From sequence record KM389307.1: DNA of 5,624 bases. One strand, given 5' to 3'. Source of the stretch: Escherichia phage Phi06_2974 B. The notes under the pieces are model-generated. The model saw only the letters and a program-made list of their open reading frames with translations. It did not search any database and had not been told where the DNA came from. The position numbers and the translations under genes were made by a program. Positions 81 to 5,624 of the stretch are shown piece by piece. The number at the start of each line of letters is the position of its first letter. Positions within the stretch are counted from its first letter, which is position 1.

Positions 81-662
81 TTACAATCCTACCGCGTCAT
101 CCTTCCTCTGACTATCTACCGGAAAATACCGGTAGAGCGTCGATAACCCCACCCCGTAGATAATGGCCAGTTGCTGGCGGGTATGCCCCTTAGCCAATAG
201 CCGCCCAATCTGTTCTCGCTCATGAGGCTTTAATGCGTTGGGCCTTCCACCTATGCGTCCCTGTGCTCTGGCTGCTGCTAACCCGGCCAATGTTCGTTCG
301 ACGATCAACTCACGTTCCATTTCCGCCAGTGCCGACATCACATGGAAAAAGAAACGCCCCATGGCAGTGCTGGTATCAATACTGTCTGTTAAAGAGCGGA
401 AGTGGGCACCGCGTTCATGTAACTCTGATATCAGTGCGATCAGGTTCTTAACGCTGCGCCCCAGCCTGTCCAGTTTCCACACGACCAGGGTGTCTCCGCT
501 ATTAACGCACTTTAAAGCGCGTTTCAGACCGGGGCGGCTGGCAACTTTTCCGCTCATACGGTCTTCAAAAATGCGGTCACAGTTTGCGCTTATGAGTGCA
601 TTACGCTGTAAATCGCTGTTCTGGTCGATTGTTGATACGCGGATATAACCAATGACGGCCAT
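81..662 (-). CDS. Serine recombinase, DNA invertase of the Hin/Gin/Cin/Pin (Din) family, 193 aa
   Basis: Translation from the ATG at 662-660 begins [23 protein letters not shown]... with the catalytic-serine motif (YIRVST), the conserved [15 protein letters not shown] and [32 protein letters not shown] blocks, and a C-terminal HTH region (LSTLYRYF). A strong SD (GAGGAGGAG, plus 668-676) sits 5 nt upstream. The ORF-track start at 731 is a TTG and would read through the crossover site; I reject that extension. Confidence 0.9.
575..640. promoter_or_regulatory. Predicted Fis-dependent recombinational enhancer (sis-like) inside the 5' end of the invertase gene
   Basis: In Hin/Gin/Cin systems the enhancer lies within the first ~150 bp of the invertase coding sequence, with two Fis sites about 48 bp apart. 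Here, in coding orientation, GTATCAACAATCGAC (plus ~624-638) and AAGCGCAAACTGTGA (plus ~578-592) occupy the equivalent positions, about 46 bp apart and about 105 bp from the left crossover centre. Assignment is by positional and sequence analogy to my recollection of the hin enhancer. Confidence 0.45.
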
Positions 663-1110: not shown

Positions 1111-1551
1111 ATGAATTACATATATTCCGCGACTACAAACTCTTTCTATCCGCTGGAGATGAAAGAGGATTACACTCAAGCTGACTCATGGCCAGATGAT
1201 GCTGTTGAAGTTGATGAGCAAGTGTATATTGAGTTTTCCGGATTACCGCCGAAAGGAAAAATCCGTATCGCTGGAGAAAATGGTTTTCCTGCATGGTCTG
1301 AAATTCCACCACCAACACATGAGGAACAGATTGCTGCAGCCGAACTGGAAAAGCAGCAACTGATTAATCAGGCCAACGATTATATGAACAGTAAACAATG
1401 GGCTGGTAAAGCGGCTATTGGTCGTCTGAAAGGTGAGGAACTGGCGCAATATAATTTGTGGCTGGATTATCTGGACGCACTGGAGCTGGTCGATACTTCC
1501 GGTGCGCCAGATATTGAATGGCCTACGCCTCCGGCAGTTCAGGCCAGATGA
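1111..1551 (+). CDS. Tail fiber assembly protein (Tfa/gpG/U-like chaperone), alternative copy paired with the silent cassette
   Basis: ATG at 1111 preceded by GGAG (1101-1104). The 146-aa product has an acidic N-terminal half and the C-terminal motif APDIEWPTPP characteristic of Tfa chaperones. Position immediately downstream of a tail-fiber C-terminal cassette. Confidence 0.8.
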   Translation: MNYIYSATTNSFYPLEMKEDYTQADSWPDDAVEVDEQVYIEFSGLPPKGKIRIAGENGFPAWSEIPPPTHEEQIAAAELEKQQLINQANDYMNSKQWAGKAAIGRLKGEELAQYNLWLDYLDALELVDTSGAPDIEWPTPPAVQAR

Positions 1552-2116
1552 CATCCGGCGCGGTGCTGGTATCTGTTGCCGTCACCGCGTCAATGTAATC
1601 CAGCACAGCGTTAAGCCGGGTTGTTTCTGCCTGCGTCAGTTTCCGCCCGGCCTGTAATTTCAGCTGAATCAGACTAATGGAAGCCATTGCTGCATCAATC
1701 AGTGACTGGCGCTGTGCTTCTGCCGCTTCTACTGCGGCACTGTGTTGTGCCTCAGTATCTGTCACCCATTTCTCACCATCCCATTTATCATATGGCGTTA
1801 ACGGTGAAAGCGTGACATAACCGTTTTTGATGGCACCGATATAATCCACTGTAACAGCTGCGCCATTTTCGATTGAGTAAACAGTCTCATTGCGATGGTC
1901 CTCTTCATGGCTCCATCCCTTACCTGTAAATACAGCCACTTTTCCCGGAATGTTTTCGCCAGGGTCAATACCAGTGGAACAGGCGGGCATACTTACACCA
2001 GTATTAATATATTCATCAGACCAGCCCGTATATTCATACGTTACTGCATCATAATAAAAACAACGCATATCACCCGGCACTGTAGCCAGTCCATTTTCAT
2101 CAAAAACAGGTTTCAT
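1523..2116 (-). CDS. Tail fiber assembly protein (Tfa/gpG-like chaperone), copy expressed with the current H
   Basis: ATG (plus 2114-2116) overlaps the H stop as TAATG. The 197-aa product ends ...TAPDVIWPELPEA with the conserved Tfa C-terminal WP motif. Immediately downstream of H, as G follows H in P2. Confidence 0.85.
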   Translation of the reverse strand: MKPVFDENGLATVPGDMRCFYYDAVTYEYTGWSDEYINTGVSMPACSTGIDPGENIPGKVAVFTGKGWSHEEDHRNETVYSIENGAAVTVDYIGAIKNGYVTLSPLTPYDKWDGEKWVTDTEAQHSAAVEAAEAQRQSLIDAAMASISLIQLKLQAGRKLTQAETTRLNAVLDYIDAVTATDTSTAPDVIWPELPEA

Positions 2117-3060
2117 TATTTAGCCCTCACCAGAAAGTTAAATGCAATGTTACGTGGTCTGACGGCAATAAAATTAACACCATCTCCTACTGAGTTACTG
2201 GTGTACTGAAATCGAGAGAAACCTGGTTGGTGTGCTGATATTCCATCGTAATCAGCAATCGCATGGCCGGACCCTTCTGGATAATTACCGCCAAATTGCG
2301 ATAAAGCTGTTGCTGCCTGCCAGCTTAATAATGCTCGCCCACTGTCCGCCCCTCGCCCATCATCCCAGATACGAATGAAATCACCGCGGGCTTCAGGTAA
2401 TACCAGCGAAGGAAACACTTTTGCCAGCACAGGGTAATCAGAGGCAGAAAATTTCGCCCCGTTGAACTTCAAAAACACCATACTGGACCAGCTATCGATT
2501 ACAGTATTTGGCATTGCAGCGGACGGCCAGAAGAACGGAACGCCAATAGCTGGAGCACCTTCTCCCAAACCAAGGTTTTGAAGAAAGGCTGCCTTATCGG
2601 GAATATCCGCACCGTTCTGGTCTTTGGCCAGTTTCTCCGCCAGCTTGTTCAGCACTGTGGTCGCAAAGTTCGGATCGTTGCCAAGGGCATCAGCCAGCTC
2701 TTTCAGCGTATCCAGTGTTTCTGGGGCTGTACCTGCAAGCGCAGCAATCGCCCTCGCCACAAATTCTGTCGTCACCAGCTTTTTGCTGTTGTCATTAGCT
2801 GCAGGCGTGGGGGCTGTTGGCGTACCCGTGAATGTTGGGCTGGCCTTCGTCGCATACTGGGTATGCGGGTCGGCCGCTGCGATGTGTTTCGCGAGATCTG
2901 AACCGCCTTTTTCAACCTGCTGTTTCAGGTATGAAGTACGGCTGGCCAGCTGTTTAGCCTGACGGTTAGAAATTCCATCAGGCCCACCCAGTACGGGGTC
3001 GGAGACCTCAATCTGGTAGATGCCGTCTTCCCACTGCGGGGTTTCGGGTAGATTTGCCAT
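2116..3060 (-). CDS. Tail fiber protein (P2 gpH-like), 314 aa: constant N-terminal part plus currently joined variable C-terminus
   Basis: ATG at 3058-3060 with GGGAG about 9 nt upstream. Contains a Pro/Thr-rich linker (PTFTGTPTAPTPAA) and the motif LDTLKELADALGNDPNFATTVLNKLA, which matches the ALGNDPNFATT block I recall in P2 H and related fibres. Sits after baseplate genes J and I and before tfa. The stop overlaps the tfa start. Confidence 0.9.
   Translation of the reverse strand: MANLPETPQWEDGIYQIEVSDPVLGGPDGISNRQAKQLASRTSYLKQQVEKGGSDLAKHIAAADPHTQYATKASPTFTGTPTAPTPAANDNSKKLVTTEFVARAIAALAGTAPETLDTLKELADALGNDPNFATTVLNKLAEKLAKDQNGADIPDKAAFLQNLGLGEGAPAIGVPFFWPSAAMPNTVIDSWSSMVFLKFNGAKFSASDYPVLAKVFPSLVLPEARGDFIRIWDDGRGADSGRALLSWQAATALSQFGGNYPEGSGHAIADYDGISAHQPGFSRFQYTSNSVGDGVNFIAVRPRNIAFNFLVRAK
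2560..2585. repeat. Right crossover site (hix/gix-like, 26 bp): TTCTCCCAAACC-AA-GGTTTTGAAGAA, inside the H coding sequence
   Basis: Inverted copy of the left site with an AA core at 2572-2573 on the plus strand. On the minus strand it encodes residues F159-E167 (FLQNLGLGE) of H. Confidence 0.8.
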
Positions 3061-3062
3061 AA

Positions 3063-3641
3063 TTAACTGCTCCCGTGGTTATAGCTGCCGTCATAGTTGA
3101 CGGTGTTGTTGTAGCGAATGGCGGCAGACTGATACTCCAGGCTCGCCAGATGGCAGCGGGCCGGAGCAAAGGCAGCGAGCGTCTGGCGTAACAGAGCCGC
3201 CTGATCGTTAGTGATGGGCTGTTGAAGGATGACGCGATAGACCGCCCAGGCTTCCGCATCGCCGTGGACAAAAAGCCCGTTATAAGTGTGTTTGCCGTCG
3301 TATCCGATCTGGCCAGTGCCTTCAATCAGATCCACTTCGCCGAAGCCGAAACGGCGGATAATTTCCCGGATTGACCACGGCGTCCCTTTGTAGCGGTGCA
3401 ACTCGATAGCGGATTTGATAAGCGTGCGACGTACATCGTCTGACTCCGCCAGTTCCCAGCCGTCACCGAACAGCGAGAACTGTTCGCCCAGCCATGGCAG
3501 CGCAGAGCTGTCGACAATATCGACGAGGTAGACCATCAACACGCTCAGGTCGATGCTGTCCAGTCTTCCGGCCAGATTGCCCAGTGCCCTGAAGCTGATA
3601 TCACCCTCAAGTGCTGGCGGGAGTTTTAGCGTCTCAGCCAT
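3063..3641 (-). CDS. Tail/baseplate protein (P2 gpI-like), 192 aa
   Basis: Sits between the J-like and H-like genes as in P2. The likely true start is the ATG at 3639-3641 (GGGAG 6 nt upstream), overlapping the J stop by 8 nt; the ORF-track start at 3647 is a TTG two codons upstream. The P2 gpI call rests on gene order and approximate size. Confidence 0.8.
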   Translation of the reverse strand: MAETLKLPPALEGDISFRALGNLAGRLDSIDLSVLMVYLVDIVDSSALPWLGEQFSLFGDGWELAESDDVRRTLIKSAIELHRYKGTPWSIREIIRRFGFGEVDLIEGTGQIGYDGKHTYNGLFVHGDAEAWAVYRVILQQPITNDQAALLRQTLAAFAPARCHLASLEYQSAAIRYNNTVNYDGSYNHGSS

Positions 3642-4737
3642 CGACAACTCCCGTGATAGTTACGTTGATGGCGGTACAGTTAGCCCACTCATTCTCTGCA
3701 AGAACAACAAGTTCAAGGCCGGGTAGTTCAACCTGGTAAACACCGCTGACAGTCAACACGGCGTTAATTTGTCCGGGGACGATATCCACACCCAGCTTGG
3801 TTCTTCGGGCTGCAACCCAGTTCTGGATGGCGTTGTTTGCCTCGTCTTTTACCGAGTTTGCATCCTGATTGCGGTAGATGGTGATCTGGGCATCTATGGT
3901 GTAATCCACCTGCACGGGCGTTTTAGCCCGGACGGTATCAGTGAGCGGCCTGACTTTTTCGTCTGAGCAGAAGCTCTCTACCAGCGTGAGGATGCTGTCG
4001 TCCGGCAGGCCGGTACTGAGCAGTGGATACAGCTCTACGGTGCCCGGAACCGGGGAGAGCACGGCGACGTCAACGATGTTGGGATGGGCCTGCATGGCAT
4101 GAAAGCGGTATGCCATACGGCTTCCGGCATTTGTGAAAGACTCCGGGGCCAGTTTGATACGTTCCCGAAGTCTGTCATTGTCTTCCTGCTCTGAACCGCC
4201 AGAGCTGGCTGCCAGATTGGTTACCTGCAGGTCGACGTTATCAATCTCATCGAGCAACTGACTGACCTGCGCAGGTTGCCAGTCGTTGCCAGCGGCTCCT
4301 GGTTCGGTACAGGTGGCCGTGGCATTGACCAGCAGCAATCCGGCTTTCAGTACCACGTCCGTATCGGTGGCAAAAATAATGCTGTCGGAAGCGCTGACAC
4401 GGGTACCTGCCGGGATCAGCACATCAATGGCCAGTTCCTCATCCACGGAGAACTGGAGCGTGGTGGTAGCAGGCTGCGCGGCAAGGCGGTACACACCAAC
4501 CAGTTCACCGAGGTAGTCAATCATCGGCTCACGGGCAAAGGCGACCAGATTCTGTTTGGCCGCTTCCTGCGCCGCCACCCTGACCAGCATTTCACGGTAT
4601 GCCCACAGGTCAATCAGCAGGCGCTCAGCCTGAGCGGGGTACAGCGTTTTGCCGGTTGCAGCTTCGTACTGTGCAATCATTTCTGCCGTGATTTTGTCGG
4701 CATCACGTTCAATAAAGTCGGGTTCTGTCAGCGCCAT
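3634..4737 (-). CDS. Baseplate assembly protein J (P2 gpJ-like), 367 aa
   Basis: Long ORF with ATG at 4735-4737. Overlaps the W stop by 10 nt and the I start by 8 nt. Position between W and I matches the P2 V-W-J-I-H-G order. Family assigned by synteny and size. Confidence 0.85.
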   Translation of the reverse strand: MALTEPDFIERDADKITAEMIAQYEAATGKTLYPAQAERLLIDLWAYREMLVRVAAQEAAKQNLVAFAREPMIDYLGELVGVYRLAAQPATTTLQFSVDEELAIDVLIPAGTRVSASDSIIFATDTDVVLKAGLLLVNATATCTEPGAAGNDWQPAQVSQLLDEIDNVDLQVTNLAASSGGSEQEDNDRLRERIKLAPESFTNAGSRMAYRFHAMQAHPNIVDVAVLSPVPGTVELYPLLSTGLPDDSILTLVESFCSDEKVRPLTDTVRAKTPVQVDYTIDAQITIYRNQDANSVKDEANNAIQNWVAARRTKLGVDIVPGQINAVLTVSGVYQVELPGLELVVLAENEWANCTAINVTITGVVDG

Positions 4738-5075
4738 AGCAGCTCCTGAGTCCGGGTCTGTCCTTCAGAGCCTTTCCAGCTCACCCGGAGCGTAAGATGT
4801 TCGCCGTCGACGGCGGGTTTAACCGACATCAGCTGGCAGCGAGGCTCCCAGCGGCGGATGGCATCGACGGATTCGCGCACCACATGCGGGATAGCCCGGT
4901 CGATGGGCCAGTCGATATAAAGATGCAGATTGCTGCCGAACTCCGGGCGATGCGGGTCGCTGCCGCGAGGAGTTCGCAGGATGATTTGAATGGCCTGCCA
5001 GATATCATCCAGCCCCCGGACGATTTCGCCGGGGGCCTGCAGTGCCGGTTGCCAGAATACTGAGGTTGTTTTCAT
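4728..5075 (-). CDS. Baseplate assembly protein W (P2 gpW / T4 gp25-like), 115 aa
   Basis: Small protein of the size and position expected for gpW. ATG at 5073-5075. Lies between V and J. Confidence 0.8.
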   Translation of the reverse strand: MKTTSVFWQPALQAPGEIVRGLDDIWQAIQIILRTPRGSDPHRPEFGSNLHLYIDWPIDRAIPHVVRESVDAIRRWEPRCQLMSVKPAVDGEHLTLRVSWKGSEGQTRTQELLWR

Positions 5076-5076
5076 G

Positions 5077-5121
5077 GGGGCAGTATTGCCCCTGTGCGGG
5101 AACGCCGATATTAAAGGCGTT
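5077..5121 (-). other. Two short inverted repeats in the V-W intergenic region
   Basis: GGGGCA(gtat)TGCCCC at 5077-5092, directly abutting the W start codon, and AACGCC(n9)GGCGTT at 5101-5121. Neither is followed by a U-run on the mRNA strand, so they are not obvious intrinsic terminators. Confidence 0.3.
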
Positions 5122-5129
5122 TAAGAAGG

Positions 5130-5624
5130 TCAGTGGGAATGGTGATTGGAGTTCTGGCCGTCAGACAGCATGCTGCCTGTGGAGTGGGCATTGCCGTTGA
5201 TTTCAAGGTTACCGTTCACCGTGGTGGTATCAGCGGTCAAATCAATGGTTTTCCCCTTCAGGCTGATACCTACCGCAACCTCGATCACCACATGCTCGAT
5301 ACCTCCTTTGACCGTCAGCGTATGGGTCGCGCGGTTATAGCTGAACTCTGCGCCATCCGCGTATTTCGTGCCCCGGACGTTTTTGTCGCTGAACGGCGGT
5401 TTATCGACTTCTGAGTACACCGCGCCCAGAATGACACCATCCTCGCCGTTGGCATCGAGCAGCACCTCAACCTGCTCCCCCACGTCAGGGAGCCAGTAAT
5501 CCTTGTTATCCTGGGTATTGCGCTGTAGCACGTTAAGCCAGTTAGTGCGCAGGTTATCGCACTCAGGCAAACGAACGCGGGCCTGAACCTTGTCGGCATC
5601 GACGGCGCTGACCGTACCGACCTG
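5130..5624 (-). CDS. Baseplate spike protein V (P2 gpV-like); 5' end lies beyond the window edge
   Basis: The frame is open to the window edge (upstream residues QVGTVSAVDADKVQARVR continue into LPECDNLRTNWLNVLQ...). The P/DVGEQV motif, Gly-rich beta region and C-terminal HSTGSMLSDG resemble P2 gpV as I recall it. The ORF-track start at 5570 is an internal TTG. Confidence 0.85.
   Translation of the reverse strand, partial: QVGTVSAVDADKVQARVRLPECDNLRTNWLNVLQRNTQDNKDYWLPDVGEQVEVLLDANGEDGVILGAVYSEVDKPPFSDKNVRGTKYADGAEFSYNRATHTLTVKGGIEHVVIEVAVGISLKGKTIDLTADTTTVNGNLEINGNAHSTGSMLSDGQNSNHHSH

Follow-up and report, generated by a model that had tools for sequence, protein, structure and literature searches.

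Tail-to-tail overlap of two tail-fibre chaperone genes in a Gin/Pin-type inversion switch and hairpins embedded in the flanking coding sequence

The stretch of DNA analysed here (5,624 nucleotides of Escherichia phage Phi06_2974 B, sequence record KM389307.1; "the window" in the following) covers the tail module of a P2-like prophage, recognizable by Pfam matches to homologues of gpV, W, J and I. It contains two tail-fibre chaperone (Tfa) genes, tfa′ and tfa, which converge at the centre of an invertible segment and share 29 bp at their 3′ ends. We consider it highly probable, for both statements taken together, that the window carries an intact host-range inversion switch of the Gin/Pin type, the same type as the e14 P segment of Escherichia coli, and that the overlap is a frozen, dual-constrained and inherited state, neither a product of chance nor an error.

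The silent chaperone gene tfa′ (1111–1551, plus strand) codes for 146 residues and the chaperone gene in the expressed orientation, tfa (1523–2116, minus strand), for 197 residues. A first-pass annotation of the sequence had described both as tail-fibre chaperones, which is borne out by Caudo_TAP (PF02413) matches of 130.1 and 97.0 bits at a cut-off of 22.1 (E 7.4e-38 and 1.2e-27), extending to residue 141 of 146 in the tfa′ product and to residue 196 of 197 in that of tfa. A search of PDB sequences with the 197-residue Tfa as query gave no match. Each chaperone gene is accompanied by a module for the C-terminal part of a tail fibre. The fibre gene itself (2116–3060, minus strand), an open reading frame (ORF) assigned by its placement relative to the P2 I, J and W homologues, is split into a constant part Sc (3060–2574) and a variable part Sv (2572–2116), the latter lying inside the segment, so that the expressed variable part plus tfa occupies 2572–1523. 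The stop codon of the fibre gene and the start codon of tfa share one base (TAATG), an arrangement which suggests translational coupling. On the other strand, the silent alternative C-terminal module Sv′ (739–1089) matches Gp53-like_C (E 6.8e-15), whereas the expressed fibre protein of 314 residues has no Pfam match at E ≤ 0.01; its counterpart in relatives is annotated as tail fibre or hypothetical protein.

The inversion-switch setting proposed in the first-pass annotation rests on a serine DNA invertase gene of the Gin/Pin/Cin family (81–662, minus strand; Pfam Resolvase, E 2.6e-46, and HTH_7, E 1.6e-14), whose product is 65–67% identical to Gin, Cin and PinE, and on two crossover sites of 26 bp each. 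The left site, TTTCCAAAAACC-TT-GGTTTGGGAGAA (725–750), and the right site, TTCTCCCAAACC-AA-GGTTTTGAAGAA (2560–2585, within the ORF 2116–3060), belong to the inverted repeat I1 (731–756 / 2554–2579, 92% complementary). The ORF coordinates, combined with the repeat symmetry (p ↔ 3310 − p), place Sc in frame with Sv′ after inversion: codon starts on the minus strand at x = 0 mod 3 are transferred to 3310 − x = 1 mod 3, and the plus-strand ORF 652–1089 is read in that frame. The same segment type is found in either orientation in related contigs (12 versus 9). The Sv′-tfa′ pair has no promoter of its own, and Sv′ lacks both a start codon and the 5′ part of a fibre gene. It follows that tfa′ and tfa are alternatives and not co-transcribed units, and the earlier description of "converging units" has to be given up in so far as it implies simultaneous transcription. 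The invertase gene is located downstream of the currently expressed fibre-chaperone unit and has the same orientation.

The overlap extends from the stop codon of tfa (TAG, 1525–1523) to that of tfa′ (TGA, 1549–1551) and measures 29 bp including both stops (1523–1551), as the sequence and the ORF list agree. The C-terminal peptides reported at first pass could be followed base for base. The plus gene ends W-P-T-P-P-A-V-Q-A-R, encoded by TGG(1519–1521) CCT ACG CCT CCG GCA GTT CAG GCC AGA TGA(1549–1551), and the minus gene ends D-V-I-W-P-E-L-P-E-A, encoded by GAT(1555–1553) GTC ATC TGG(1546–1544) CCT GAA CTG CCG GAG GCG TAG(1525–1523). In the following, tfa′ (WPTPP plus AVQAR) is referred to as the "long-tail" and tfa (WPELP plus EA) as the "short-tail" type. 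The claim that roughly 30 bp encode the C-terminal motifs of both proteins is equally correct: both W-P-x-x-P motifs lie on the 28 bp 1519–1546, and the inverted hexamers TGGCCT (1519–1524) and AGGCCA (1541–1546) said to bracket the shared stretch are the Trp-Pro codons of the two genes. Together, the motifs form a dyad skeleton TGGCC-N7-CCGG-N7-GGCCA (TGGCC 1519–1523, CCGG 1531–1534, GGCCA 1542–1546) centred on 1532.5, in the middle of which the invariant codons for the last proline of each protein, CCG 1531–1533 on the plus strand and CCG 1534–1532 on the minus strand, overlap as the palindrome CCGG. The stop codons are likewise built from the partner's codons. TAG of tfa is the complement of C[CT A]CG, the Pro-Thr of tfa′, and TGA of tfa′ is the complement of G[TC A]TC, the Val-Ile preceding the Trp of tfa; class-wide, TAG complements C[CT A] in Pro-Thr/Ile/Met and T(G/A)A complements T(C/T)A in (Val/Ile)-x before Trp. 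The residues beyond the last proline (AVQAR and EA) are the antisense read-out of the partner's conserved codons and are to be regarded as by-products, because stops constructed from those codons end each read-through. The two chaperone genes are distant paralogues arranged tail to tail, and a further inverted repeat, I4 (1461–1478 / 1587–1604), which encodes LDYLDA and LDYIDA, has the same centre of 1532.5 as the skeleton; the 3′ ends of the two paralogues thus constitute one in-register imperfect palindrome.

The distribution of the overlap was assessed in a survey of 160 loci around Gin/Pin-like recombinases, taken from one-genome-per-species contigs and IMG/VR, in which Tfa ORFs were called with an iterated hidden Markov model. 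Exactly 29 bp are shared in 27 of the 39 adjacent convergent Tfa pairs found in this recombinase-anchored survey, which answers the question, raised at first pass, of whether homologous switches show the same 3′ overlap. These 29-bp pairs comprise at least 17 distinct combinations of terminal peptides, for example WPIQPEELAI with WPAPPAE or VWPIPPALLGG with ITLPTKPGV. In addition, IMG/VR was scanned for the skeleton TGGCCTA-N5-CCGG-N7-GGCCA (16 specified bases), which is present in at least 120 contigs. Among the matches listed, 119 of 120 are contained in Tfa ORFs, a recombinase is present in the fetched DNA for 66, and both partners were found in 100, of which 96 overlap by 29 bp, three by 20 bp and one by 17 bp. 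One pair of the survey overlaps by 14 bp with the CCGG register unchanged. The rare variants retain this register and have earlier stops (14 bp in locus L090, 17 bp in L287, 20 bp in L169, L269 and L282); in L090 both proteins end one residue past the last proline, and L169 has skeleton matches on both strands.

The overlap is also the most conserved part of the junction in terms of mean column entropy, with a value of 0.54 and 11 of 29 columns invariant, compared to 0.73–0.75 for the adjacent 30 nt and 0.85–1.2 further out. TGGCCTA and CCGG are invariant across 23 distinct junctions, and the residue following W-P in the long-tail gene is always Thr, Ile or Met, all with A-initial codons, since the TAG of the partner requires such a codon. 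We considered whether 29 bp might be the only register that permits two W-P-x-x-P motifs, an idea rejected by inspection, as other offsets of the fixed bases are compatible as well. The constancy of the 29 bp accordingly reflects common descent combined with double constraint.

The closest known system is the P segment of the cryptic prophage e14 in E. coli K-12, which has the gene order pinE – stfE – tfaE / tfaP – stfP, as in the window, and in which tfaP (1208132–1208545) and tfaE (1208517–1209119) share the same 29-bp overlap and the same junction DNA. The C-terminal peptides of TfaP and TfaE, ...APDIEWPTPPAVQAR and ...APDVIWPELPEA, are identical to those of the window, the C-terminus of tfa′ corresponding to that of TfaP and the C-terminus of tfa to those of TfaE and of HK97 Tfa. 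In contrast to the e14 element, which is a decayed lambdoid element with stfE a pseudogene in K-12, the window harbours an intact fibre gene and a switch placed in a complete P2-like tail module (V-W-J-I homologues); moreover, the N-terminal part of the tfa′ product differs from TfaP (48% identity) and the flanks resemble Pantoea prophages, unlike those of e14. The 29-bp overlap is annotated in PGAP-annotated E. coli prophages and in phage 500465-2, and 2,728 E. coli records match the segment. A central block (1288–1804), corresponding to the C-terminal trimerisation domains of both chaperones, is 93–95% identical in E. coli, Klebsiella and Salmonella phages with differing flanks. Tfa proteins are known to combine a conserved C-terminal trimerisation domain with variable N-terminal fibre-binding domains (PMC9608196). 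Comparison of the C-termini with known Tfa proteins, also suggested at first pass, revealed W/F-P-x-x-P as a family-wide C-terminal signature, present in Mu U/U′, e14 TfaP/TfaE, HK97 and lambda Tfa and P2 G, and the prolines P138 and P141 are invariant in Mu, e14, HK97 and the window. As an example of the e14 P-segment type the locus is ordinary, and it displays all testable defining features of that type. As the overlap is contained in the K-12 reference annotation and, by similarity, in thousands of genomes, its existence as originally stated is not new.

The window as a whole is a mosaic with breakpoints at both crossover sites. Its flanks (3–801 and 2558–5624) are 91–96% identical to Pantoea stewartii (L008) and to IMG/VR contigs (L088–L097), and the interior of the segment (724–2576) shares 96.8% identity with an E. 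coli prophage (L002). Such a distribution suggests that prophages may swap whole cassettes at the crossover sites or close to them. One contig labelled as Vagococcus sp. WN89Y (L009, NZ_JBQPOM010000054.1) carries an enterobacterial-type invertase (90% identical) together with a Tfa pair overlapping by 29 bp; the Gram-positive genus label is probably due to assembly contamination or misassignment.

A different design is realized in the Mu G and P1 C segments (S-U / U′-S′, with Gin and Cin), which follow the same logic with crossover sites inside the fibre gene, an invertase 65–66% identical to that of the window and two convergent Caudo_TAP chaperone genes ending in W/F-P-x-x-P. Here, U and U′ do not overlap. 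They are separated by a 28-bp spacer both in Mu (U 32975–33502, U′ 33531–34064) and in P1 (U′ 33785–34318, U 34347–34874), which contains a hairpin AAGGCCCG-NNNN-CGGGCCTT flanked on one side by a T run, and both proteins end one residue past the last proline. A perfect GC hairpin, mostly accompanied by a T run, was found in all eight surveyed pairs with spacers of 24–41 bp (for instance AAGGCCCGATAGCGGGCCTT in Mu and AAAGCCCGCTATGCGGGCTTTTT in a Pantoea locus), and the proteins of this class stop 1–3 residues past the last proline. The Mu spacer hairpin was classed as a terminator by a pattern scan, and we regard it, on its sequence, as a probable terminator. The spacer-class switches appear to use exactly the strategy of bidirectional intrinsic terminators between convergent bacterial genes, in which one palindrome serves both directions. 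The window is not of this type, having no spacer between the stops, and instead fits the e14-type centre (TGGCCTA-N5-CCGG-N7-GGCCA, 29 bp, WPxxP + 5 residues versus WPxxP + 2 residues). Taken literally, the earlier remark on the lack of space for a terminator is correct, and it becomes informative because Mu, P1 and others hold a probable hairpin terminator in their 24–41-bp spacers: the missing space genuinely separates one class of the switch from the other. What the remark missed are compensating hairpins inside the flanking coding sequences.

Two such hairpins are present in the window. Hairpin L (1474–1508, minus strand), which starts 15 nt past the tfa stop, lies within the tfa′ codons ...LDALELVDTSGAPD, its outer pairs reaching 1469–1513; hairpin R (1557–1591, plus strand) starts 6 nt past the tfa′ stop and lies within the tfa codons ...DAVTATDTSTAP. 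Each of them thereby falls into the partner's codons for ...A-V-x-A-x-D-x-S-T-A-P-D preceding the W. The 186-nt junction folds better than shuffled sequences (z −3.9 and −4.4 on the two strands), an excess attributable to these two local hairpins. Hairpin R has a folding energy of −23.8 kcal/mol in 50 nt (z −4.1), which drops to −12 upon synonymous recoding (p<0.005), and hairpin L has one of −15.9 kcal/mol in 50 nt, with values of −18 to −24.5 in relatives. In general, the 50 nt past each stop fold with −16 to −25 kcal/mol, compared to about −9 (z about −0.3) for antisense gene-body controls. An Rfam scan of the window yielded nothing relevant.

The hairpins distinguish the overlap class from the spacer class. 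The 48 nt before the W fold with −17.7 kcal/mol (z −2.96, n=43 distinct sequences) in the former and with −9.2 kcal/mol (z −0.19, n=22 distinct sequences) in the latter, Mu and P1 likewise showing no excess folding there. Relative to synonymously recoded versions, overlap-class sequences gain 7 kcal/mol in stability (z −2.27, 70% of sequences at p≤0.05), and spacer-class sequences show no such gain (z −0.25, 9% at p≤0.05). Hairpin stability thus stems from codon choice and not from the protein sequence, and does so in the overlap class only. When 120 extra loci were added and the sequences clustered at <80% identity, 36 clusters of the overlap class (z −1.87, 50% significant) contrasted with 16 of the spacer class (z −0.14, 6%; Mann-Whitney p 6e-5), the two classes being different lineages. 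The stems are lineage-specific and nevertheless occupy the same place (GCCGTCGA/TCGACGGC, GCGGTGGA/TCCACCGC, GCGGCAGA/TCTGCCGC). In a nine-sequence alignment of hairpin R homologues, 98% of the cells are paired and 4 of 11 pairs show double changes, with slid controls at 36–59%; for hairpin L (12 sequences), the corresponding values are 87%, 4 of 14 pairs and 30–47%, both helices having been derived from the same, related sequences on which they were tested, which favours them over the slid controls. Each helix includes an invariant G-U pair on the read-through strand. These patterns point to maintenance of the hairpins by compensatory changes.

On this basis, we propose a scenario for the complete locus, from its anatomy to the role of the hairpins, which we judge to be somewhat more likely than not, though by no means secured. 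The serine invertase would flip the segment of about 1.84 kb and thereby connect the constant 5′ portion of the fibre gene with either of two 3′ modules, each of which then has its own chaperone gene. Transcription would be limited to the copy joined to the constant part, and with one copy transcribed no collision of polymerases is expected at the overlap. The transcript of the expressed unit would run past its stop into the untranslated antisense of the silent copy and, without a 3′ element, would go on toward the invertase gene downstream on the same strand. A hairpin just past the stop might act by weak termination or pausing, or might block 3′-exonucleases after Rho-dependent termination, and because one hairpin lies on each side of the overlap the arrangement would work in both orientations. 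The two hairpins would in this way take over the job of the single bidirectional hairpin in Mu and P1. That they are 3′-end elements replacing a lost intergenic terminator is the more delicate component of the scenario, which we put forward as a tentative proposal falling slightly short of even odds. With regard to the origin of the overlap, the perfect CCGG register leads us to speculate that a fold-back duplication took place at this tetramer or that the palindrome was deleted centrally there. The combined claim that synonymous-codon hairpins serving the opposing gene replaced a Mu/P1-like terminator and that the overlap itself arose at CCGG by one of these routes is, as judged from sequence comparison, possible but a degree more doubtful again.

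A single independent hint for the role of the hairpins comes from HK97, whose Tfa shares its C-terminal half with the tfa product of the window and has no full convergent partner. HK97 is switchless and yet keeps exactly the overlap and hairpin L downstream of tfa, the similarity to the window stopping at the outer edge of the hairpin. The retained DNA (L005 2501–2581; also L247) comprises the terminal ~26 codons of what was a convergent tfa′ (QLDALELVDTSGAPDIEWPTPPAVQAR*), past tfa and beside sib/att. It might be all that is left of a switch since lost, or else have been kept as a 3′ element. P2 G (WPEMPQ) and lambda Tfa (WPAVPVME) belong to the same family, carry the same end motif and, like the spacer-class proteins, stop one to three residues past the last proline. 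Neither has a convergent partner, and both are followed by hairpins or a terminator of their own; beyond P2 G, remains of a tfa′ were looked for and not found.

Several observations weigh against a function of the hairpins at the 3′ ends. Neither hairpin of the window is followed by a U tract (AATGTAATCC, AGATAATCC; AAUGUAAUCC, AGAUAAUCC), so they are not canonical intrinsic terminators, and a terminator pattern scan of the window gave only weak matches at chance level. In comparison with bidirectional terminators, the window has no intergenic DNA but two separate hairpins in coding sequence without U tracts, which makes termination itself doubtful. An individually significant hairpin is present in only about half of the overlap-class clusters, and the contrast between overlap and spacer is not phylogenetically independent because the classes represent different lineages. 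The derivation of the helices from the tested sequences, mentioned above, has to be counted here as well. Finally, the hairpins fold on the sense strand too (z −2.3), which leaves room for a role at the DNA level or in the sense mRNA. In some relatives, a UUU(U) or U7 run does follow the hairpin. In locus L091 (~4250–4310), past the stop of the short-tail gene, a hairpin precedes seven T that derive from the antisense of Lys-Lys codons; with its T run inside the partner's codons, this would be a canonical-looking intrinsic terminator located wholly within the partner's coding sequence. The supplements of a Term-seq compilation contain no tfaP or tfaE entries.

Much of this would also be expected from neutral compaction, in which spacer and terminator were deleted, the overlap was frozen by double constraint and the flanking hairpins have no function, having been left over from an ancestral palindrome or having come about through the composition or codon usage of this lineage. 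The tails past W-P-x-x-P are indeed variable and set by the partner's codons, and the missing U tracts of the window, the clusters lacking individual significance and the separate lineages of the two classes fit this view equally well. However, it does not readily account for the extra stability of ~7 kcal/mol over synonymous recoding in the overlap class only, for the different stems with compensatory double changes at the same place in each lineage, or for the retention of exactly the hairpin-bearing remnant in HK97. Furthermore, a hairpin occurs in the spacer of every spacer-class pair, so that a hairpin near the stops looks like a requirement, and we regard functionless compaction as unlikely, albeit a serious competitor of the 3′-end role. 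A sequencing or annotation artefact with one gene ending earlier, circumstances which the first-pass annotation had named as fatal to the overlap, carries a practically negligible probability, and nothing was found in its favour. Across independent genomes, and in many different sequences, the relative position of both stops is unchanged, the Pfam domain extends to the last residues, and the e14 annotation, the survey pairs and the IMG/VR pairs refute the artefact reading.

Alternatively, the dyad might be a DNA-level element, for example one that forms a cruciform, binds a protein, serves as a secondary recombination site or is a hot spot at which phages exchange half-cassettes. The whole 3′ region is an in-register imperfect palindrome with I4 and the skeleton sharing the centre 1532.5, the block 1288–1804 is highly similar across phages of three host genera with differing flanks, and the hairpins fold on both strands, all of which would suit such an element. 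Its conservation is, however, already explained by double coding and the conserved C-terminal trimerisation domain (PMC9608196), the invariant G-U pairs of the read-through strand become A-C mismatches on the other strand, and the dyad has no similarity to the 26-bp crossover sites, of which the window contains no further copy; we thus consider a DNA-level function improbable. Secondary crossover sites at the junction were rejected specifically, as the window has only one repeat pair of that kind. Still less credence is given to antisense control, in which RNA from a promoter in the silent copy would traverse the overlap and pair with the expressed chaperone mRNA at its 3′ end. Two promoter-like matches in the junction, compared to 0.5 expected, speak in its favour (plus strand 1426–1455, CTGAAA-18-TATAAT, 10/12; minus strand 1493–1466, TCGACC-16-GATAAT), and the plus-strand site would send antisense RNA over the overlap into the expressed tfa. 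Yet these are consensus matches only, the TATAAT lies within the codons of the conserved QYNLW motif, and the spacer class has no such need, so that this mode of control appears very improbable.

In our literature searches no paper was found to discuss overlap, hairpins or terminators in these segments, the 2025 Nucleic Acids Research article on inversion of the e14 P segment included. The contrast between the two designs together with the coding-embedded hairpins may be a small new point. A spacer with a terminator on the one hand and an overlap with embedded hairpins on the other would provide a natural example of an RNA-structure constraint acting on coding sequence, in this case adjoining a stretch that is already double-coding. 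The arrangement is relevant to gene callers, which tend to penalize long convergent overlaps, and to the engineering of fibre/chaperone cassettes, where recoding the last 20 codons of a tfa gene could disturb the 3′ end of its partner. Relics such as the tfa′ stub of HK97 may likewise become readable as traces of lost switches.

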